Positions 1-6,095 of a stretch of DNA of 6,095 nucleotides are shown here, piece after piece (position 1 is the first letter of the stretch; each line of letters opens with the position of its first letter). Where the stretch lies: the IMG/VR virus record IMGVR_UViG_2744054675_000004, positions 1 to 6,095 of that record. One strand, 5' to 3'. The notes beneath the pieces are model-generated. The model saw nothing but the letters and a program-made list of their open reading frames with translations. It was not told the origin of the DNA and did no database searches. Origin of the DNA: a virus. Lineage: Duplodnaviria > Heunggongvirae > Uroviricota > Caudoviricetes. The translations under genes were made by a program, and so were the position numbers.

Positions 1-205
1 TTTCATGTCGTGCATTGTTTGCAATGATTTTTGCTTCATAAGCAGAAATTACGTCATCTTCATGAATATCTTTCAGAAAGCTGGTGTCAAGACGTTGTAC
101 TATTTCAGCGTTCATTGATCGCTTATTGGCTTTTGCAGAAATTTCTATTTTTTCTTTTACTTCGACGGGAAGTCTGATCCTTAGTTGTGGATCTTCTCTG
201 CTCAT
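1..205 (-). CDS. mnt: Mnt-like ribbon-helix-helix repressor, 3' end runs off the window (partial)
   Basis: Minus-strand ATG at 205..203 opens a frame with no stop before position 1; it is absent from the ORF track because it is incomplete. Translation starts MSREDPQLRIRLPVEVKEKIEISAKANKRSMNAEIVQRLDTSFLKD, which matches my recollection of the P22 Mnt N-terminus (MARDDPHFNFRMPMEVREKLKFRAEANGRSMNSELLQIV). It is divergent from the arc/ant genes, as in P22 immI. Confidence 0.7.
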   Translation of the reverse strand, partial: MSREDPQLRIRLPVEVKEKIEISAKANKRSMNAEIVQRLDTSFLKDIHEDDVISAYEAKIIANNARHE

Positions 206-251
206 GTTCTTCACCAAATATTGAGTTACTTGCAATGATTGAAGTATGCCT

Positions 252-311
252 CACCGTGTGCTTGACATCAATGACGCACGGTGTGACAATTATTTTGCCC
301 CACGGTGGGGC
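252..311. promoter_or_regulatory. Divergent mnt / arc-ant control region: candidate sigma70 promoter and RHH operator palindromes
   Basis: TTGACA at 262-267, a 17-nt spacer, then GACAAT at 285-290 (plus strand, reading toward arc). Palindromic heptamers CACCGTG at 252-258 and CACGGTG at 277-283 and 301-307, the last inside the 15-bp near-perfect palindrome GCCCCACGGTGGGGC at 297-311. The CCACGGTGG core matches my recollection of the P22 mnt operator. Confidence 0.45.
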
Positions 312-325
312 TAAGGAGATATGAA

Positions 326-493
326 ATGCAAAAAGCAAAAGAGATGTGTCAACGACGAGTTCGTTTTCCGGACGATGTGAAGTTAGCTATTGAAAGAAAT
401 GGCGAAAAAGAATGCCGAAAGTTCAATACAGAGATTATCTATCAGCTGAGGAAAGTGTATGGACTCACTGGTGAGAAGAATAGCGTGGCATAA
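326..493 (+). CDS. arc: Arc-like small ribbon-helix-helix repressor (55 aa)
   Basis: ATG at 326 preceded by AAGGAG at 313-318. The ORF track starts this frame at an upstream GTG (305), but the ATG with the Shine-Dalgarno is the likelier start. Product MQKAKEMCQRRVRFPDDVKLAIERNGEKECRKFNTEIIYQLRKVYG... has the size and the basic beta-strand-then-helix pattern of P22 Arc, and sits first in the ant operon as in P22. Confidence 0.65.
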   Translation: MQKAKEMCQRRVRFPDDVKLAIERNGEKECRKFNTEIIYQLRKVYGLTGEKNSVA

Positions 494-503
494 AACAGCG
501 AAG

Positions 504-514
504 CCCCACGGTGG
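504..514. promoter_or_regulatory. Second CCCCACGGTGG copy in the arc-ant intergenic region (candidate operator or RNA structure)
   Basis: CCCCACGGTGG at 504-514 repeats the core of the 297-311 palindrome. It lies between the arc stop (493) and the ant ribosome-binding site (AGGA at 553-556). Confidence 0.3.
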
Positions 515-565
515 CCAGACCGTCAGGGCTTCAGTATCGTAAAACTACGTATAGGAATTAACGAC

Positions 566-1504
566 ATGACGAGTATAGCAACAGCAGTATCTACTATCAA
601 CGTGCCATTCCACGGCGCAGAGCTTTATGTTGTCAATCACAACGGCGAACCGTATACCCCAATGAAACCTATCGTTGAGGGAATGGGGCTAGACTGGAAA
701 TCTCAACATAAGAAGATTTCTCAACGCTTCTCGAAGGGTATGGTGGAAATCACCATACCTTCTGCCGGTGGGGTGCAAGCCATGATTTGTATGGCTTTAC
801 GAAAATTGGCAGCTTGGTTGAACAGCATCAGCCCTAACAAAGTCCGCCCTGAAATCCGCGACAAGGTAATCCAGTATCAGGAAGAGTGTGACGATGTGCT
901 CTACGAGTACTGGACTAAAGGCCATGTGGTTAACCCACGCAAAGCTAAAAAGGCGTTGCCGGGTAAAATAACAACTGAACAGCAGGAAGCCATTAAACAA
1001 CTCGTCATGAGTCGCGGTCAGTCTCTGCCAAAAGAAAAACAGGCTAAGGCGATGATCACCATGTGGTCGTCACTGAAATCTCATTTTGGCTGTTCGTACA
1101 AAGAAATTGGTGAAGATCAATTTGCCGAAGCGTTGTCTCTTGTTGCTCGGGTTCCGCTTGAAGGGGAGTATCTCCCTGCTGGATCTGCATCAGAGAATGA
1201 TGAAGTGGCAGTCAAGATGTTAGATGCGCTTCGTGAGGCAATTAAAACACAGACAAAATGTTATGGTTATCCATTGAAGCCAGGCTACCGCAGTCTGATT
1301 CATTCGCCGTCGGGTGTTCTCGGCCTGACGGAGAACTCACTGCTGATGAATCTGCTGAACCAGTTACAGGAAGACGGGCACGATGTATCGGGCGCGGCGG
1401 CGGAGCTGACCACCATGTTCTGCTACATCGTTGGTGTGAGCAAATGCCTGCGTGATATCCAGACGCACGCGGAATACATCAACGACAAGGCAGGGTTCTT
1501 CTGA
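566..1504 (+). CDS. ant: Phage antirepressor (Ant-type N-terminal domain plus conserved C-terminal module), 312 aa
   Basis: Complete ORF in the track. It sits immediately downstream of the arc-like gene in the same orientation (immI synteny). The N-terminal region (VPFHGAELYVVNHNGEPYTPMKPIVEGMGLDWKSQHKKI...) resembles AntA/P22-Ant type antirepressor N-domains from memory. The C-terminal ~75 aa are near-identical to the C-terminus of the 2560..3255 protein. Confidence 0.8.
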   Translation: MTSIATAVSTINVPFHGAELYVVNHNGEPYTPMKPIVEGMGLDWKSQHKKISQRFSKGMVEITIPSAGGVQAMICMALRKLAAWLNSISPNKVRPEIRDKVIQYQEECDDVLYEYWTKGHVVNPRKAKKALPGKITTEQQEAIKQLVMSRGQSLPKEKQAKAMITMWSSLKSHFGCSYKEIGEDQFAEALSLVARVPLEGEYLPAGSASENDEVAVKMLDALREAIKTQTKCYGYPLKPGYRSLIHSPSGVLGLTENSLLMNLLNQLQEDGHDVSGAAAELTTMFCYIVGVSKCLRDIQTHAEYINDKAGFF

Positions 1505-1530
1505 CAGAACGGCGGCACAGGGACGTGCAA
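1277..1530. repeat. Left arm of an inverted repeat (3' end of ant plus ~25 bp downstream)
   Basis: Manual alignment with the reverse complement of 2536-2787 gives about 11 mismatches over ~230 coding nt (~95%). Similarity continues past the stop codon through GGCACAGGGA(C/T)GTGC. Confidence 0.85.
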
Positions 1531-1554
1531 AACGAAACTAGCGTGACATGTCAC

Positions 1555-1580
1555 AGGCCGCTTTCGCGGCCTTGTTTTTA
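1555..1580 (+). terminator. Rho-independent terminator candidate after ant
   Basis: Stem AGGCCGC (1555-1561), loop TTTC, stem GCGGCCT (1566-1572), followed by TGTTTTTA. Confidence 0.55.
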
Positions 1581-1739
1581 ACGAATGCCACCGCCGCCAG
1601 GGCGGGAATCCGCAGAACGCCCACCGCAGCGGGAGCCGTCAGCAGCAGTGTCGCTGTCGTGCTGACAACGACCGGCAAAGGCCTGAGTTGAAGCTACCAG
1701 AGACAATAAAACGAACAGTGCAGCAAATGCTTTTTTCAT
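1578..1739 (-). CDS. Hypothetical small secreted peptide (53-aa precursor with predicted signal peptide)
   Basis: Internal ATG of the track ORF 1578..1811. Product MKKAFAALFVLLSLVASTQAFA|GRCQHDSDTAADGSRCGGRSADSRPGGGGIR has a textbook N-terminal signal peptide with an AxA cleavage motif and a 31-aa, two-cysteine, Gly/Arg-rich mature part. The ribosome-binding site is weak (GGAAA), and the frame is GC-rich and could be fortuitous. Confidence 0.3.
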   Translation of the reverse strand: MKKAFAALFVLLSLVASTQAFAGRCQHDSDTAADGSRCGGRSADSRPGGGGIR

Positions 1740-1816
1740 TGTGAAATTTCCATCTATAAGCCACCTCAATGTGGCGTCAATGAGTGTAGCACTGACTTTT
1801 GTTTCGTCCACAAAAA

Positions 1817-1833
1817 AGCCCGCAGCGCGGGCT
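1817..1833 (-). terminator. Rho-independent terminator ending the minus-strand cargo operon
   Basis: On the minus strand: AGCCCGC, loop GCT, GCGGGCT, then TTTTTTG. The hairpin overlaps the TAG stop at 1834..1832. It is A-tract-flanked on the other side, so it may act bidirectionally. Confidence 0.65.
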
Positions 1834-2272
1834 ATTCTTCTTCATCATTAAAAAGCGGATTGTTGTTTCCATCTGATGAAAGGAAAGGTATGTGTTCTCT
1901 TGAAAATCCAACAATGACAATTTCATTATCATTTTTTGCATAATGAATGCATTCATTAGAATGCCTTCCGCCAGGGTTGAAATTTAAGTTAATGGTATAA
2001 TTCTTAAATGTGTTTGGATACCATGTTGGCCCACAATGATAATGCCAATAATTCTCTTGCTCATAATTGTCTGAGCCGGGAATTTTATCATGGTTATCAT
2101 CAACCCACGAGGGCTTGTTTTTTCCAACAAGCGCCCTTCCATTGGCAACATCCTCTAAAAAACTTTGTATGATTTTTATTTCATCATCAGTAAGGAAAGG
2201 TCCGTCTACAGCGAAAGGGGTGTTGCTTTCCCCATGTAGAAAACTATTAGATATTCTAATGTTAAACTTCAA
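1832..2272 (-). CDS. Hypothetical acidic protein, 146 aa, no recognised family
   Basis: This is the 3' 146 codons of the track ORF 1832..2413. I propose a TTG start at 2272..2270 preceded by AGGAG at 2283..2279, because the first 47 codons of the long form overlap the upstream 55-aa gene in another frame and look non-protein-like (W/R-rich). Product MKFNIRISNSFLHGESNTPFAVDGPFLTDDEIKIIQSFLEDVANGRALVGKNKPSWVDDNHDKIPGSDNYEQENYWHYHCGPTWYPNTFKNY...SREHIPFLSSDGNNNPLFNDEEE. The region is AT-rich and net acidic with an acidic tail. Confidence 0.5.
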   Translation of the reverse strand: MKFNIRISNSFLHGESNTPFAVDGPFLTDDEIKIIQSFLEDVANGRALVGKNKPSWVDDNHDKIPGSDNYEQENYWHYHCGPTWYPNTFKNYTINLNFNPGGRHSNECIHYAKNDNEIVIVGFSREHIPFLSSDGNNNPLFNDEEE

Positions 2273-2292
2273 GGAAAACTCCTGATGTGCTT

Positions 2293-2460
2293 CTATTTGG
2301 AGCGAAATGCCGCCTTGAAGTCGCTGAAAGATGTTCCTGTCTGGTAAACCATATCCTTGTCGCGCTCTTTGCTTGCGCGGCCAAGCATAACTTTTCCAAT
2401 GACATCCCAGCATTGCTTGGCTTGTTTATTGTGCTGAGTACGATTTTTCAACGCTGTCAT
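2293..2460 (-). CDS. Hypothetical small basic protein, 55 aa, first gene of the cargo operon
   Basis: Not in the ORF track (below its size cut-off). ATG at 2460..2458 with a strong Shine-Dalgarno (minus-strand AAAGGAGG, 6-nt spacer), stop TAG at 2295..2293. Product MTALKNRTQHNKQAKQCWDVIGKVMLGRASKERDKDMVYQTGTSFSDFKAAFRSK is net basic. Confidence 0.5.
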   Translation of the reverse strand: MTALKNRTQHNKQAKQCWDVIGKVMLGRASKERDKDMVYQTGTSFSDFKAAFRSK

Positions 2461-2472
2461 ATCGCGCCTCCT

Positions 2473-2515
2473 TTACCTTTAAGGTAATAGTACGCTATTC
2501 ACCCACAGTCTGCAA
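2473..2515 (-). promoter_or_regulatory. Candidate sigma70 promoter with overlapping TTACC-N5-GGTAA operator (site 1) for the cargo operon
   Basis: Minus strand reads TTGCAG (plus 2515..2510), 17 nt, TACTAT (2492..2487). Palindrome TTACC-TTTAA-GGTAA at 2473-2487 abuts the -10 and the Shine-Dalgarno. Confidence 0.4.
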
Positions 2516-2535
2516 TCTGTACAGAATTATTTAAA

Positions 2536-2787
2536 GGCACATCCCTGTGCCACCGCCCGTCAGAAGAACCCTGCTTTGTCGTTGATGTACTCCGCGTGCG
2601 TCTGGATATCACGCAGGCATTTGCTCACACCGACGATGTAGCAGAACATGGTGGTCAGCTCCGCCGCCGCGCCCGATACATCGTGCCCGTCGTCCTGTAA
2701 CTGGTTCAGCAGATTCATCAGCAGTGAGTTTTCCGTCAGGCCGAGAACACCAGACGGCGAGTGAATCAGGCTACGGTAGCCGGGCTT
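2536..2787. repeat. Right arm of the inverted repeat (3' end of the Bro-N antirepressor gene plus ~25 bp downstream)
   Basis: Reverse complement aligns to 1277-1530; see left arm. Confidence 0.85.
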
Positions 2788-3255
2788 CAGCGGGGCGCTG
2801 TAGGTTTTGTTCTCTATCTTCATCGCCTGCATTACTGCTGACGCCGTGGCGTTGGCTACCTGGTCGGCAACCATCTTTATGCGTTCTTCCTGCGGGAGCG
2901 AGTTTTTAATGTAACTTCCGGTGCGGCGGATCTGAGGAAGAACCTCACCTGTAACCCATTTACGAAAGCGGTAGGGGATAGTGCCTGGTGTCACCGCATC
3001 GCGGCAGCGGAGGATCAGTGTGTAGAGGCCTGACTCGGAGATGATGATCGATTCTTGCTCACCGCCAGGGGTGTCGGTTGAAGCGACGCCCTTCTCATCA
3101 TCATCAAGTTTTCGAACAGCATCTCGATGGTTTGCTATGCCTATAGCCCGACAAACATCTGAAGCGATAAACCATGGCTCACCATTAATGACGATTACCC
3201 GTATATCGGCTTGGGATTCGAAAGAAAAAATGGACGTGCTTTTTGTAGCTGTCAT
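2560..3255 (-). CDS. Bro-N-domain antirepressor-like protein sharing the Ant C-terminal module, 231 aa
   Basis: Complete ORF in the track. The N-terminus (FESQADIRVIVINGEPWFIASDVCRAIGIANHRDAVRKLDDDEKGV ... FRKWVTGEVLPQIRRTGSY) fits the Bro-N domain signature from memory. The C-terminal 75 aa (KPGYRSLIHSPSGVLGLTENSLLMNLLNQLQDDGHDVSGAAAELTTMFCYIVGVSKCLRDIQTHAEYINDKAGFF) differ from the 566..1504 protein at a single residue (E/D). Confidence 0.8.
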   Translation of the reverse strand: MTATKSTSIFSFESQADIRVIVINGEPWFIASDVCRAIGIANHRDAVRKLDDDEKGVASTDTPGGEQESIIISESGLYTLILRCRDAVTPGTIPYRFRKWVTGEVLPQIRRTGSYIKNSLPQEERIKMVADQVANATASAVMQAMKIENKTYSAPLKPGYRSLIHSPSGVLGLTENSLLMNLLNQLQDDGHDVSGAAAELTTMFCYIVGVSKCLRDIQTHAEYINDKAGFF

Positions 3256-3451
3256 AGTGGTTACCTTTTAGTCTGGTTAATCACCACTACCGACGCCAAT
3301 CGGTTGGTGGTGAACTGTGCAGGGTTGGCGTAACCGGCTAAAAGGACCCGGCGCACCTTTCGGTGCCCCCACACAGCCCACCATAATACGAATGTGGCCG
3401 TGCTATACGCATAAAAAAACCGCTTGCGCGGTGAATGCGCCTTTTAGTAAT

Positions 3452-3489
3452 CCGGGACGCCAATCCCGGCACTGGATTTTTCCAGTGCC
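3452..3489. other. Tandem perfect hairpins in the divergent intergenic region
   Basis: CCGGGA-CGCCAA-TCCCGG (3452-3469), immediately followed by GGCACTGGA-TTTT-TCCAGTGCC (3468-3489; 9-bp perfect stem). No T-tract follows on either strand. Confidence 0.35.
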
Positions 3490-3524
3490 CGATTACTATG
3501 ACACAAGAGGAGTGCGATGTAAAT

Positions 3525-3539
3525 TTACCGCAAAGGTAA
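3525..3539. promoter_or_regulatory. TTACC-N5-GGTAA palindrome, site 2
   Basis: TTACC-GCAAA-GGTAA, centred about 93 bp upstream of site 3. Confidence 0.4.
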
Positions 3540-3616
3540 TGATAAGCGCGGAGGTATATAAAAATCAACCGTATTTGGTTGGTGGCGTTTAGCGCTTGAT
3601 CACCTGAAAGCAAGAT

Positions 3617-3633
3617 ATTACCTTTAAGGTAAT
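3617..3633. promoter_or_regulatory. TTACC-N5-GGTAA palindrome, site 3, just upstream of the 242-aa gene
   Basis: ATTACC-TTTAA-GGTAAT ends 20 bp before the ATG at 3653. The half-sites and spacer are identical to site 1. Confidence 0.45.
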
Positions 3634-3652
3634 GTTATTGTGAGGAAAAGCA

Positions 3653-4381
3653 ATGGAAGTTTTCTGGATAGTTGTTGGTGTGGTTGCGGTGATTATTTAC
3701 GTTATCAACCAGAACAAGACTAAGATCTCTGATCGTACGGTCGTTAATCATAACAAAACGATAAAGACCGAAGATGGGGAGATAACGATTAATCGTACAC
3801 AGGTGATAGAACACACCTCTACTCAGTTTCAAAAAACTGGAGGTAATGCGCCTAATATTTCCGCACCTCCTGCTTATGATAGTGCGGTAATCCAGACATA
3901 TTATAAACAGCAGGAGTTAGCAAAAGAGAGGCAACTGATTCAGCCAAAGCCGTTTACAGCTGAGCTTCCACCTGGAGTGTCAACGCCTCCGGCATATCAT
4001 GGAAGATTCCCTGGTGATGACATATCGTCTCAGTCATCTAAAAAAGCACCTCAGGCAGTATCAGAGCCAGCAAGAATACCTTCTGTATCGCCGCCAAAAG
4101 AAGAATCAGCTAACAGAGTTTCAAGTGGTAGCAAGCAGTGCTTGCGATGCAGAATAAACCTTCCGTATGAGAAGTTCAGGAAATCGTCAAAAAATCCAGA
4201 TGGATTGACTAAGTGGTGTGCAAGGTGTCTCGATGGCCCAAAGAATACACGTCATATGAAGTGGTGCCCAATTTGTAATGTCCGCAGAAAACGAACCAGC
4301 TTTTACCCTAATAATCAAAATGCGGATGGCTTAATGGCATGGTGTAAAACGTGCTGGGACGAGCACAAAGCGAAACGATAG
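3653..4381 (+). CDS. Hypothetical membrane-anchored protein with a Pro-rich linker and C-terminal tandem CxxC zinc-ribbon repeats, 242 aa
   Basis: Complete ORF in the track, with AGGA 7 nt upstream of the ATG. N-terminal hydrophobic helix EVFWIVVGVVAVIIYVI followed by NQNKTK. Low-complexity middle with two PPAY motifs. C-terminus has C-x2-C ... NPDGLTKWC-x2-C and C-x2-C ... NADGLMAWC-x2-C (8 Cys in 4 CxxC pairs). It is followed directly by a terminator. Confidence 0.65.
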   Translation: MEVFWIVVGVVAVIIYVINQNKTKISDRTVVNHNKTIKTEDGEITINRTQVIEHTSTQFQKTGGNAPNISAPPAYDSAVIQTYYKQQELAKERQLIQPKPFTAELPPGVSTPPAYHGRFPGDDISSQSSKKAPQAVSEPARIPSVSPPKEESANRVSSGSKQCLRCRINLPYEKFRKSSKNPDGLTKWCARCLDGPKNTRHMKWCPICNVRRKRTSFYPNNQNADGLMAWCKTCWDEHKAKR

Positions 4382-4404
4382 GCCGCTCTAGCGGCCTTTT
4401 CTTT
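4381..4404. terminator. Bidirectional rho-independent terminator between convergent genes
   Basis: GGCCGC-TCTA-GCGGCC followed by TTTTCTTT on the plus strand. The same hairpin lies directly after the stop of the minus-strand gene 4403..4660. Confidence 0.65.
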
Positions 4405-4660
4405 ATGTGGTTTGTTTTCGTAATTGTTCGGCACAATAGTCGAGATGTGTTTGCAGATCCTGCATAGACATCTGTGAGCTGGTGACGTAGTTAATCAGTG
4501 CAGTCAGTTCGGCAAGTGGGCCATCGACATTAAATCCATCCTTATCGAGATCCCGGAGTAATTTCATCAAGTGCGATCCCTCCACCAGTGACCTGACGCC
4601 TCCCGGCGTGTGAATCCTTTCGGTAAATCCGTCTTCCAGTGGATAGTGATACTGCTGCAT
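4403..4660 (-). CDS. Stand-alone homolog of the antirepressor C-terminal module, 85 aa; candidate SOS-inducible antirepressor
   Basis: Track ORF 4403..4678 starts at a TTG; the ATG at 4660..4658 with GGAG 8 nt upstream is the likelier start. The product (…HTPGGVRSLVEGSHLMKLLRDLDKDGFNVDGPLAELTALINYVTSSQMSMQDLQTHLDY…) aligns with the C-terminal module of both antirepressors (HSPSGVLGLTENSLLMNLLNQLQEDGHDVSGAAAELTTMFCYIVGVSKCLRDIQTHAEY) at roughly 40-45% identity by eye. A LexA box lies 20 bp upstream. Confidence 0.65.
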   Translation of the reverse strand: MQQYHYPLEDGFTERIHTPGGVRSLVEGSHLMKLLRDLDKDGFNVDGPLAELTALINYVTSSQMSMQDLQTHLDYCAEQLRKQTT

Positions 4661-4679
4661 CTTATCTTCTCCATGCAAT

Positions 4680-4699
4680 AACTGTATATTTATACAGTA
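4680..4699. promoter_or_regulatory. LexA (SOS) box
   Basis: AACTGTATATTTATACAGTA matches the E. coli consensus TACTGTATATATATACAGTA at 18 of 20 positions, with CTGT-N8-ACAG intact. It lies 7 bp upstream of the Shine-Dalgarno of the minus-strand gene 4403..4660. Confidence 0.7.
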
Positions 4700-4735
4700 T
4701 CAAATAATTTGTTTGCTATCCAGCACGTTTTGCAA

Positions 4736-4752
4736 ATTACCCGAAAGGTAAT
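4736..4752. promoter_or_regulatory. TTACC-N5-GGTAA palindrome, site 4
   Basis: ATTACC-CGAAA-GGTAAT in the divergent region between the LexA-boxed small gene and the tailspike gene. Confidence 0.4.
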
Positions 4753-4855
4753 ATCTATTGGTATTTATAGTCTTTCTATCCATATGTGGTTTTTCAGGTA
4801 ATAGAATAACCAGATATGCGGCGCAACGGGTGCTGCGACTATCTGGAGATTTAAC

Positions 4856-6095
4856 ATGACGGTCTCAACCGAAGTTGACCACAACGAATACACTGGTAAC
4901 GGAGCTACGACATCATTTCCGTATACCTTCCGTATTTTCAAAAAAACCGACCTGGTTGTTCAGGTGTCTGACCTGAACGGGAACGTAACAGAATTGGTTC
5001 TGGATACCGGTTATAAGGTAACTGGAGCGGGCACTTATAGTGGCGGTGAAGTGGTTCTCCCGTCGCCGCTTGCTGCTGGCTGGCGAATTACGATAGAGCG
5101 TGTGCTTGATGTGGTGCAGGAGACTGATCTTCGCAATCAGGGAAAATTTTTCCCCGAAGTTCATGAAGATGCATTTGACTACCTGACGATGCTGATCCAG
5201 CGATGTTTTGGGTGGTTCAGACGTGCATTGATGAAACCATCTTTGCTTGCAAAATATTACGATGCAAAGCAAAACAAAATTTCTAACCTTGCAGATCCAT
5301 CATTTGAGCAGGACGCTGTAAATAATCGCTCAATGCGTAATTATGTCGATGCTGCAATCGCCGGGGTTGTTGGTGGTTTTGGTTGGTTTATACCGTCAGG
5401 AAGCGGGGCAAGACAACGAACATTTCAAAGCAAAATGAGGGATATAATTTCTCCTTGTGATTACGAAGATAATATTTTTATGATTAAGGAGTTGATATCC
5501 AAAGGCAAAAATGCCGCTGTTTTTAACTCATATTATACTTTTGTTATTACTGTTGGCGAATGGGGTGATTACCCTACACTCAAAGATGCAATCATTGCAG
5601 CCCAGTCAATGAGGCCTATGTGGGATGGTGGTAATGCTTTCTGCGAAATAAGAATTAAGACCGGGCATATTATCAACTATCAAATTGAATTCAGTTCAGG
5701 TGTTGATTTGTCTTGGATTAAAATAACATCAGAAGACTCAGTGGTTTTCTCTGACACTCGTTTGTTTACTAAAATCGTTAGAACGTATTACGAATACAAG
5801 TATTTATTTTACATTTGCGATGCAGCAAAAAGTCCTGTATTTGCTATTCAGATCGAAGAAAATAGAGATGATAGCGATGTTTGTGCATTTATTGTAACTC
5901 AAAAAGCTGAACTTAATTTCTATCCGTATTCAGGTGCTCGAAAGTTCTACGTTGGAATTCATGGTAGTTTTGGTGCAAAAATTAGTGCATATCATACCGG
6001 ATGTGCTCCTGATGAGGAAAGTGTTGCTGCATATATGCCAGAAGGGTATTACGTATGTGATTTTTCTTATAGCAGATACTCTTCCCTGCAACTGG
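4856..6095 (+). CDS. Tailspike / tail fiber protein, 5' part (runs off the window)
   Basis: ATG at 4856 with GGAG 7 nt upstream; open to the window end (absent from the track because there is no stop). The N-terminus (EYTGNGATTSFPYTFRIFKKTDLVVQV ... QNKISNLADPSFEQDAVNNRSMRNYVDAAIAG) resembles the T7 gp17-type tail-fiber N-terminal particle-binding domain from memory. The downstream AT-rich part contains GDYPTLKDAI, reminiscent of the P22 tailspike motif SDYPTLQDA at the start of its beta-helix. Confidence 0.8.
   Translation, partial: MTVSTEVDHNEYTGNGATTSFPYTFRIFKKTDLVVQVSDLNGNVTELVLDTGYKVTGAGTYSGGEVVLPSPLAAGWRITIERVLDVVQETDLRNQGKFFPEVHEDAFDYLTMLIQRCFGWFRRALMKPSLLAKYYDAKQNKISNLADPSFEQDAVNNRSMRNYVDAAIAGVVGGFGWFIPSGSGARQRTFQSKMRDIISPCDYEDNIFMIKELISKGKNAAVFNSYYTFVITVGEWGDYPTLKDAIIAAQSMRPMWDGGNAFCEIRIKTGHIINYQIEFSSGVDLSWIKITSEDSVVFSDTRLFTKIVRTYYEYKYLFYICDAAKSPVFAIQIEENRDDSDVCAFIVTQKAELNFYPYSGARKFYVGIHGSFGAKISAYHTGCAPDEESVAAYMPEGYYVCDFSYSRYSSLQL

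Follow-up and report, generated by a model that had tools for sequence, protein, structure and literature searches.

We analyzed a gene at positions 3653-4381 (plus strand) of a 6,095-nucleotide stretch of viral DNA (positions 1 to 6,095 of IMG/VR record IMGVR_UViG_2744054675_000004; we call the whole stretch the window). The gene lies in an accessory region, similar to immI, of a prophage that resembles epsilon15 and phiV10: Escherichia phage TL-2011b matches the window at 96% identity over 72% of its length, and there are partial matches to phiV10, phiv142-3, vB_EcoP_ZX5, and other epsilon15-like podoviruses (Uetakevirus). The gene is real and selected, as it is conserved across relatives and is under strong purifying selection. 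We propose that it encodes an accessory protein for exclusion or defense, which would work at the membrane's inner face, with nucleic acid or the injection machinery as its target, and we give this reading a probability of roughly 0.4. We favor it because the product of this selected accessory gene has a predicted membrane anchor, because it carries a module of the type that is found on DNA enzymes, because its expression seems to be tied to the immunity repressor, and because the family occupies two genomic slots that are used by exclusion genes.

In the mechanism that we have in mind, the protein would be bitopic in the inner membrane: its 17-residue N-terminal helix would insert with the N-terminus outward, and all that follows would lie in the cytoplasm, namely a conserved beta-hairpin, a flexible linker that is roughly 100 residues long, and a tandem Cys4 zinc finger that is strongly basic. 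The tethered zinc fingers would capture either the entering nucleic acid of a superinfecting phage or the injection conduit at its cytoplasmic end; this capture would block the incoming genome from establishing. The gene is a moron-like accessory gene of temperate phages, and its expression seems to depend on the immunity repressor. In the epsilon15-like prophage studied here, the tie would be the gene's own promoter, with its -10 element inside a phage-wide operator; in other lineages, it would be co-transcription with cI.

We put forward exclusion as a hypothesis. An earlier note on this DNA, written from the sequence alone, had listed superinfection exclusion and a membrane-tethered binder of nucleic acid among the possible roles. 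Given that the zinc module is found on nucleases and helicases and that distant relatives of the gene lie behind cI, these are the readings that seem to fit best. A narrower idea, which we think is unlikely to be correct, is that this one polypeptide makes up a complete defense or exclusion device by coupling a nucleic-acid-sensing tandem zinc finger to the inner membrane. The protein might be a "DNA trap": when a superinfecting genome emerges from the injection conduit, the protein would grab the genome's leading end. Or it might be a Rex-like sensor and effector, with DNA-driven clustering damaging the membrane. If the one-polypeptide device were real, then it would represent a widespread and previously unrecognized class of prophage immunity genes in the cI-downstream and sieA-type slots.

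The gene and its protein

The open reading frame (ORF) is exactly as the earlier note had it: it starts with ATG and encodes 242 amino acids plus a stop codon. That note also read the flanking genes correctly, as a Bro-N antirepressor gene (2560-3255, minus strand) and a tailspike gene (from 4857, plus strand). The protein matches a family of unknown function, PHROG 6762, over its full length (E = 1.2e-149, with residues 1-242 aligned to profile positions 1-242 of 242). A word-indexed protein search found 33 homologs, from Escherichia, Superficieibacter, Enterobacter, Citrobacter, Salmonella, Serratia, Providencia, Pectobacterium, and Buttiauxella, and an exhaustive profile search found 1,732 proteins at E = 1e-3 or better. 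The full architecture (an N-terminal helix and two C-terminal zinc units within 180-240 amino acids) is present in about 50 clusters at 50% identity. All 60 of the copies that we extracted from IMG/VR are intact. Among close copies, dN/dS is 0.25 overall, 0.06 in the zinc domain, and 0.65 in the linker; in residues 1-58, which include the membrane helix, it is 0.07-0.26.

The gene is accessory and not core, because just 6 of 50,697 phage records encode the protein, while the window overall matches 271 phage records. It is missing from phiV10, epsilon15, and nearly all of their sequenced relatives. On the other side of the association, 128 of 5,426 complete genomes of E. coli (about 2%) contain the region at 80% coverage or above. 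Species-representative genomes yielded only two loci, as would be expected for a prophage gene that is strain specific. In TL-2011b, the ortholog is 96.9% identical. We considered whether the TL-2011b copy might be a pseudogene, as the record annotates the region as a misc_feature only and as tblastn covered just residues 19-242, but the ORF is intact at 242 amino acids, so we reject this idea. The gap in the tblastn alignment is probably due to low-complexity masking of the N-terminal helix.

The overall architecture that the earlier note had described (an N-terminal helix, a linker rich in proline, serine, and alanine, and two repeats based on CxxC) is indeed present where it was placed. We begin with the anchor (residues 1-20; 3653-3712, plus strand), which we predict to be uncleaved, with its N-terminus out and its C-terminus in. 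The hydrophobic segment comprises residues 3-19 (mean Kyte-Doolittle hydropathy of 2.7) and is the only one in the protein. Given an alignment of the family, AlphaFold2 predicts a helix at residues 3-20, with a predicted local distance difference test score (pLDDT) of about 90. In all 42 relatives that we aligned, there is no lysine or arginine before the helix, and the 15 residues that follow it contain an average of 3.3 of them; a relative from Yersinia phage YeP5 even has a (Thr-Lys) repeat there. Because of this pattern of charges, the positive-inside rule predicts that the zinc domain is in the cytoplasm. A cleaved Sec signal peptide is argued against because there is no charged n-region, so the segment looks like an anchor, as the earlier note had it, rather than like a signal peptide. 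The cytoplasm is a reducing compartment, and a cytoplasmic location fits with eight cysteines that resemble two Cys4 zinc sites.

After the anchor comes a juxtamembrane segment (residues 21-58; 3713-3826, plus strand) with the conserved pattern NQNKTK..SDRTV....TIKTEDGEI.I.RTQV. It is predicted to form a beta-hairpin: AlphaFold2 places strands at residues 26-39 and 42-55, with a pLDDT of only 45-56. The linker (residues 59-158; 3827-4126, plus strand) is variable and of low complexity. Proline, serine, alanine, glutamine, and threonine make up 51% of it, neither its length nor its sequence is conserved, and its pLDDT is below 50 for most of its length, with one predicted helix at residues 77-93. 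The linker carries both of the PPAY motifs to which the earlier note had drawn attention (at residues 72 and 112). These motifs are present but are not conserved: TL-2011b and the main cluster from E. coli have TRPAY in place of the second one, and both are lost in relatives at 63% identity or below. We reject PPAY as a functional motif, and the two copies look incidental to a linker that is rich in proline.

The C-terminal domain, from about residue 160, is predicted with confidence (pLDDT above 90). It consists of two units that align to each other, with the pattern K.C..C...F...DGL..WC..C, and each unit is predicted to form a small beta-sheet followed by a helix. Unit 1 (residues 159-201; 4127-4255, plus strand) contains C163, C166, C189, and C192; unit 2 (residues 202-242; 4256-4378, plus strand) contains C205, C208, C231, and C234. 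In other words, there are four CxxC motifs, which begin at residues 163, 189, 205, and 231. Across the 42 relatives, which are as little as 23% identical, the invariant positions are K161, all eight cysteines, G184, W188, D225, and W230. So the pattern of cysteines, whose conservation had been in question, does hold up in homologs. The domain has a net charge of +14 and an isoelectric point of 9.9.

What kind of module is this? The only Pfam family that matched is Stc1 (PF12898), at residues 161-193, with 21 bits and E = 5e-4, which is below the gathering cutoff of 24.8. Stc1 also matches 18 of the 42 relatives at E = 0.1 or better (at best 1.6e-5), and related proteins with many repeats exceed the cutoff (for example, P0073 scores 56 bits). 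Two successive Cys4 sites, as in the Stc1 domain, are present and are invariant in the 42 sequences. When we compared the predicted structure to the PDB with Foldseek, the tandem zinc finger of Stc1 (2LUY) was ranked first (E = 4.6e-3). Among the predicted viral structures in BFVD, there were 35 matches at E = 1e-3 or better, from phages and giant viruses, and most of these are HNH/EndoVII or "Zn-finger" proteins. Similarly, PHROG families of EndoVII, HNH, primase, and Lar-like proteins were matched solely in their N-terminal zinc parts (for example, at positions 45-95 of 271). In the exhaustive search, we found the zinc unit repeated 2-10 times in soluble proteins, and some of these have further parts: ResIII/DEAD or SF1 helicase domains, HEAT repeats, or winged helices. 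Searches of PDB sequences gave only noise, plus a weak profile match to residues 3-41 of PacI, and NCBIfam had no match.

The protein does not appear to be a nuclease. It has no HNH catalytic motif, it does not match the Pfam families for HNH or Endonuclease_7, and no histidine or asparagine outside of the cysteine ligands is conserved across the 42 relatives. We rejected this identity, as the beta-beta-alpha-Me catalytic motif was not found. Judging from its matches, the module is an array of non-catalytic zinc fingers of a kind that is usually found alongside DNA enzymes, and here it is joined to a membrane anchor. It belongs to a superfamily of Stc1-like and HNH-associated zinc fingers, even though the protein from the window falls just under Pfam's threshold. 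We infer that the two Cys4 sites bind zinc. Because the module accompanies DNA enzymes and because it is so basic, it is reasonable to expect that it would bind nucleic acid.

Probable repressor control and genomic position

The gene has a probable promoter of its own, TTGATC-17-TACCTT, whose -10 element lies within an operator. The operator is a perfect palindrome of 17 bp, ATTACCTTTAAGGTAAT, at 3617-3633; it ends 19 nt before the ATG, and its left half holds the probable -10 element TACCTT (3619-3624, plus strand). The probable -35 element TTGATC (3596-3601, plus strand) is 17 nt upstream of TACCTT and was identified by footprinting across orthologs. Although the orthologs whose upstream regions we aligned are only 50-63% identical as proteins, their upstream regions keep a TTACCTT...GGT core, and CTTGA(C/T/A)C lies exactly 17 nt before TACCTT in 8 of 9 sequences. 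Counted over the orthologous regions only, CTTGA(C/A)C has this spacing in 7 of 8. We assign the promoter because this geometry is kept while the spacer sequence differs. A Shine-Dalgarno sequence, GAGGA (3642-3646, plus strand), is 6 nt before the ATG, and GAGG is kept in most orthologs. At the other end, there is an intrinsic terminator at 4380-4405, between convergent genes, which comprises a GGCCGC-loop-GCGGCC hairpin (4380-4397) and a T run; the hairpin has a folding energy of -14.1 kcal/mol (z = -2.3). The earlier note's claim that the gene carries its own terminator and a promoter overlapped by an operator is therefore supported on both counts.

The same palindrome is found throughout the phage. 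The window contains four copies of ATTACC-N5-GGTAAT (at 2472-2488, 3524-3540, 3617-3633, and 4736-4752), versus 0.24 expected, and these are just upstream of a toxin module, an operon of c4/isrK and an antirepressor, the anchored zinc-finger gene, and an 85-residue ORF, respectively. The second of these copies, TTTACCGCAAAGGTAAT at 3524-3540, is at the divergent promoter of the c4/isrK-antirepressor operon on the minus strand, where a promoter-like site (TTGATT-18-TATCAT, 3568-3539, minus strand) has the same layout as the promoter of our gene. TL-2011b has 17 matches, versus 1.5 expected, including sites at 134, 5171, 5233, 5945, 8226, 8288, 11589, 11607, 14818, 33332, 34384, 34477, and 35596. 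Around its gene for a helix-turn-helix (HTH) repressor, gp10, there are two copies toward the leftward early genes and one toward the divergent gene gp11 (5171, 5233, and 5945). Others are found, singly or in pairs, upstream of gp14, the gene for the small terminase subunit (two copies), gp25, and the integrase gene. Because copies flank gp10 on both sides, ATTACC-N5-GGTAAT is probably the operator of the main repressor, and its scattered sites point to a distributed, P1-like repressor regulon in epsilon15-like phages.

Most of the orthologous promoters have a second perfect palindrome, TGTGACATGTCACA, directly upstream of the -35 element (in loci L073-L078 and L009/L072) and about 60-75 nt upstream of the start codon. 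The E. coli window does not contain it. It is exact in 5 of 8 orthologs, while L075 and the Enterobacter locus L011 differ at one or two positions and Serratia has no copy. We considered whether this palindrome of the Enterobacter-type orthologs might be a CRP site and rejected the idea: the half-sites are similar, but the spacing is 4 nt, versus the 6 nt of CRP sites.

Relatives of the gene occur in two kinds of genomic position. In epsilon15-like prophages, the gene lies between the large genes for ejection proteins and the tailspike gene, next to regulators with Bro-N, KilA-N/ANT, or Rha domains. We found this arrangement in at least six genera, including Escherichia, Enterobacter, Serratia, Providencia, and Superficieibacter. 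So the earlier note overstated the case when it called the position unusual: this slot is the conserved home of the gene in these prophages. In at least four other lineages, the gene is downstream of a gene for a CI-type repressor, in the same orientation, with a gap of 15-43 bp. For example, in Aeromonas phage phiARM81mr, the gap is 18 bp and the upstream gene is annotated as CI. In IMG/VR loci L089-L096, it is 15 bp and the upstream protein, of the L089 type, has an HTH domain only. Upstream proteins with both HTH_3 and Peptidase_S24 are found at L099 and at the metagenome locus L019, with gaps of 18 bp and 23 bp. The largest gap, 43 bp, is at L087, where the upstream protein has no Pfam match. 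At L098, the relative is convergent with cI. The gene in the window is not itself directly behind a repressor gene, as it has its own promoter and lies in the immI region. The slot downstream of cI is a known hotspot for defense genes that the lysogen expresses; rexAB and bstA are examples (PMC8585504).

Two loci of distant lineages show a related arrangement. A relative at L097 that has only the zinc part, with no anchor of its own, is in an operon of cI, a small membrane protein, and the zinc protein. Homologous membrane proteins of about 100 amino acids adjoin the zinc-finger genes in the cI operons of L087 (4567-4878) and L097 (3551-3847). In these lineages, the same device might be divided between two genes.

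Proposed exclusion and its alternatives

Several of our results weigh against exclusion or defense. The most important is a tension about timing. Because the operator overlaps the core promoter, binding of the repressor should shut the promoter, so the gene in the window is probably silent in the stable lysogen and turned on, along with the antirepressors, upon induction or infection, while the relatives in cI operons should be expressed in the lysogen. A promoter that is overlapped by a repressor site fits a role in the lytic phase at least as well as it fits defense of the lysogen. The promoter itself was not called by a scan for consensus promoters, and its hexamers (TTGATC and TACCTT) are weak. 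As to the protein, it resembles none of SieA, Imm, gp15, and Rex, either in sequence or in architecture, and it matched no defense model in PADLOC-DB 2.0 (only TniQ, at E = 2.4). Stc1 is said to be the only member of the superfamily with a solved structure, and its zinc module reportedly makes protein-protein contacts, which speaks against DNA binding. Finally, our search of the literature turned up nothing on this protein, on any member of its family, or on the operator.

Nevertheless, exclusion functions are found in both phases of the phage life cycle: Imm and Sp of T4 are early proteins, while SieA and Rex are lysogenic. Because of this, the tension about timing does not refute exclusion.

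If the gene is expressed upon derepression, then it might instead help the phage's own lytic cycle. We think this is unlikely. The protein would be an early one that tethers DNA to the membrane, either to organize replication or packaging there (compare p16.7 of phi29) or to pin the host's nucleoid and disturb division or segregation. The promoter is what this idea explains well, as the operator that overlaps it is shared with the antirepressor, toxin-antitoxin, and early promoters, so expression on derepression is expected. It would also make use of a basic cytoplasmic domain whose relatives are attached to DNA enzymes and of an order of anchor, linker, and globular domain that is like that of the membrane tethers ZipA and p16.7. 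But the distribution of the gene is sporadic, with no copy in phiV10, epsilon15, or nearly all of the sequenced relatives, which implies that it has no core function in replication or packaging. And where the gene is in a cI operon, as in several lineages, it would be expressed while the phage is silent.

Another possibility is abortive infection, with the sensor and the effector in one chain and with a logic like that of Rex. Here, the zinc fingers would sense foreign nucleic acid as it enters or replicates, the hairpins would cluster, the helices would assemble into a lesion in the membrane, and the infected cell would be stopped or killed. We consider this to be quite doubtful. The protein does combine a membrane helix, a conserved hairpin that might oligomerize, and a zinc module of the nucleic-acid type; several lineages do have the gene in the slot behind cI that rexAB or bstA can occupy (PMC8585504); and a YafO toxin module is nearby and under the same operator. 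On the other hand, a single short helix without conserved polar residues would be a weak pore former, the hairpin that should drive clustering is predicted with low confidence (pLDDT of 45-56), and PADLOC recognizes nothing in the protein.

The position of the gene also raises the possibility that it modulates the immunity circuit. It is always beside immunity genes (either cI or three antirepressor-type genes with the C4, isrK, and sar RNAs), and it is under the immunity operator. As a membrane-tethered protein-binding module, it might tune the switch between lysis and lysogeny by sequestering or presenting a partner, such as the repressor, an antirepressor, LexA/RecA, or a protease such as FtsH. 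The tandem finger of Stc1 is a LIM-like module for protein interactions, and 2LUY is the best match in the PDB. But there is no precedent for a tethered regulator of this kind in these phages, the other proteins that carry the zinc module are nucleases and helicases rather than regulators, and many relatives of this type of phage run the same switch without the gene. Our impression is that this explanation is a poor bet too.

Lastly, the earlier note had suggested an anti-sigma-like factor, and one could also imagine a secreted or periplasmic cysteine-rich protein (for example, something like a spanin), with the hydrophobic segment serving as a signal peptide or a type II anchor. One N-terminal hydrophobic segment followed by cysteine motifs gives the protein this general look, and nothing else does. 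Zinc-binding anti-sigma factors have a cytoplasmic HxxxCxxC domain at the N-terminus, ahead of the membrane helix, while in our protein the helix (residues 3-19) precedes the cysteine motifs (163-234) and HxxxCxxC is absent. We reject the anti-sigma, signal peptide, and spanin readings, which are very improbable on topology and homology: the charges in 42 of 42 relatives predict that the C-terminus is inside, the zinc module has homologs among the domains of cytoplasmic enzymes, no anti-sigma family in Pfam or NCBIfam matched, and TL-2011b has its own Rz-like spanin in its lysis cassette.

The surrounding prophage and comparison with known systems

The rest of the window is rich in regulators. 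At its left end, an Arc-like repressor gene (305-493, plus strand, if counted from the first GTG) is followed by a sar antisense RNA (497-564, minus strand; 44.8 bits, versus a gathering score of 43) and a P22-type ant gene (566-1504, plus strand). Next, on the minus strand, are a small protein with a signal peptide (1578-1811, counted from the first GTG) and a YafO-type toxin gene (1832-2413), whose annotation comes from TL-2011b and which has a small overlapping ORF upstream, so that the module extends across 1832-2460. The toxin's promoter (TTGCAG-17-TACTAT) runs into the operator copy at 2472-2488, and it appears that this toxin-antitoxin-like module is under the control of the phage repressor.

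The Bro-N antirepressor gene has a leader at 3303-3501 (minus strand) that contains the C4, isrK, and a1b1 RNAs. Rfam identifies the C4 antisense RNA (3303-3388, 77.7 bits) and isrK (3413-3488, 76.7 bits) above their gathering scores, and the match to the c4-a1b1 target (3449-3501) is near the threshold; all three are on the minus strand. So immI control of the P1/P7 type (and of the isrK type, as in Gifsy) is located within an epsilon15-like podovirus prophage. Because there is also a sar RNA beside ant, the prophage has two different antirepressor modules, and each is under a different antisense-RNA control. The two antirepressors are otherwise different but share a C-terminal module, which is encoded by an inverted repeat of 270 nt (1236-1505 and 2559-2828; 90% complementary). 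This suggests that the shared module is a common part for binding the repressor. The repeat could also allow a 1-kb segment, which includes the YafO-type toxin module and the gene for the small signal-peptide protein, to invert.

The 85-residue ORF (4403-4660, minus strand) is convergent with the anchored zinc-finger gene, and its stop codon abuts the terminator. It is 42% identical to the C-terminal 76 or so residues of Ant (E = 3e-16). A near-consensus LexA box, AACTGTATATTTATACAGTA (4680-4699; 2 mismatches, with 0 such sites expected by chance), precedes the ORF by about 20 nt, and the operator palindrome at 4736-4752 is further upstream than the LexA box. This ORF looks like a LexA-controlled mini-antirepressor, similar to Tum of phage 186 or to the antirepressors of Gifsy.

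We rate the architecture of the anchored zinc-finger protein as undescribed, for what may be a prophage accessory membrane protein of the exclusion or defense class. Accessory genes by which prophages protect their lysogens are a major and poorly charted share of bacterial immunity, and to our knowledge, few of the proteins that block injection in Gram-negative hosts are understood. The family is common, as it is found in about 2% of complete genomes of E. coli, in many prophages of Enterobacterales and Aeromonas, and in dozens of 50%-identity clusters from metagenomes. It is under strong purifying selection and recurs in the slots of exclusion genes, yet it has no annotation and matches no catalogued defense system. 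The design is simple (an anchor, a linker, and the zinc fingers of a DNA enzyme minus the enzyme), so it should be quick to dissect, and it would provide a first way to approach the function of a zinc module that occurs very widely among viral nucleases and helicases. Also, the scattered operator outlines the repressor regulon of epsilon15-like phages.

Several known proteins contain similar modules or have similar layouts. Stc1 (PF12898; PDB 2LUY) has the same two consecutive Cys4 fingers, but it is a soluble protein of eukaryotes that serves as an adaptor linking RNAi to chromatin modification, while our module is predicted to be membrane tethered, is very basic, and is borne by a phage. Viral HNH/EndoVII nucleases, Hpy99I, and PacI have arrays of zinc fingers at their N-termini, and there is the weak profile match to PacI, but where those proteins carry the nuclease, ours has the membrane anchor. 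In layout, p16.7 of phi29, which binds DNA at the membrane, and ZipA of E. coli are similar: they have an N-terminal single-pass anchor, a long linker, and a cytoplasmic C-terminal domain for binding. They are not homologous to our protein, however, and they perform core functions for their genomes, while our gene is a sporadic accessory.

Other parallels, in biology, are with exclusion genes. SieA of P22 is a small protein of the inner membrane that works alone to block the injection of DNA, and it has a cytoplasmic motif, FxRYPxEAxxFNK (PMC10883804). Like our gene, sieA is an accessory prophage gene of a short-tailed temperate phage, in the neighborhood of immI, between the genes for ejection proteins and the tailspike. 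Unlike our protein, SieA has 3-4 membrane helices, rather than one, and no zinc fingers. Also, FxRYPxEAxxFNK is absent from the 242 amino acids, and no PHROG or Pfam match is annotated as SieA. Expression differs as well: SieA is expressed in the lysogen, while the promoter of our gene is overlapped by the repressor's operator.

Similarly, rexAB of lambda and bstA of BTP1 share their position with the distant relatives of our gene, directly downstream of the CI gene and in the same orientation. BstA has a DNA-binding-type domain and the same conserved placement behind cI (PMC8585504). The differences are that our protein has no homology to RexA, RexB, or BstA (KilA-N), that it appears to be a single membrane-anchored polypeptide, and that the gene in the window is outside of the cI operon.

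We know of no zinc fingers in either the SieA-type or the cI-slot families of exclusion proteins. So although it is a member of none of these families, we propose that the anchored zinc-finger protein works most like a SieA-type or cI-slot exclusion gene.

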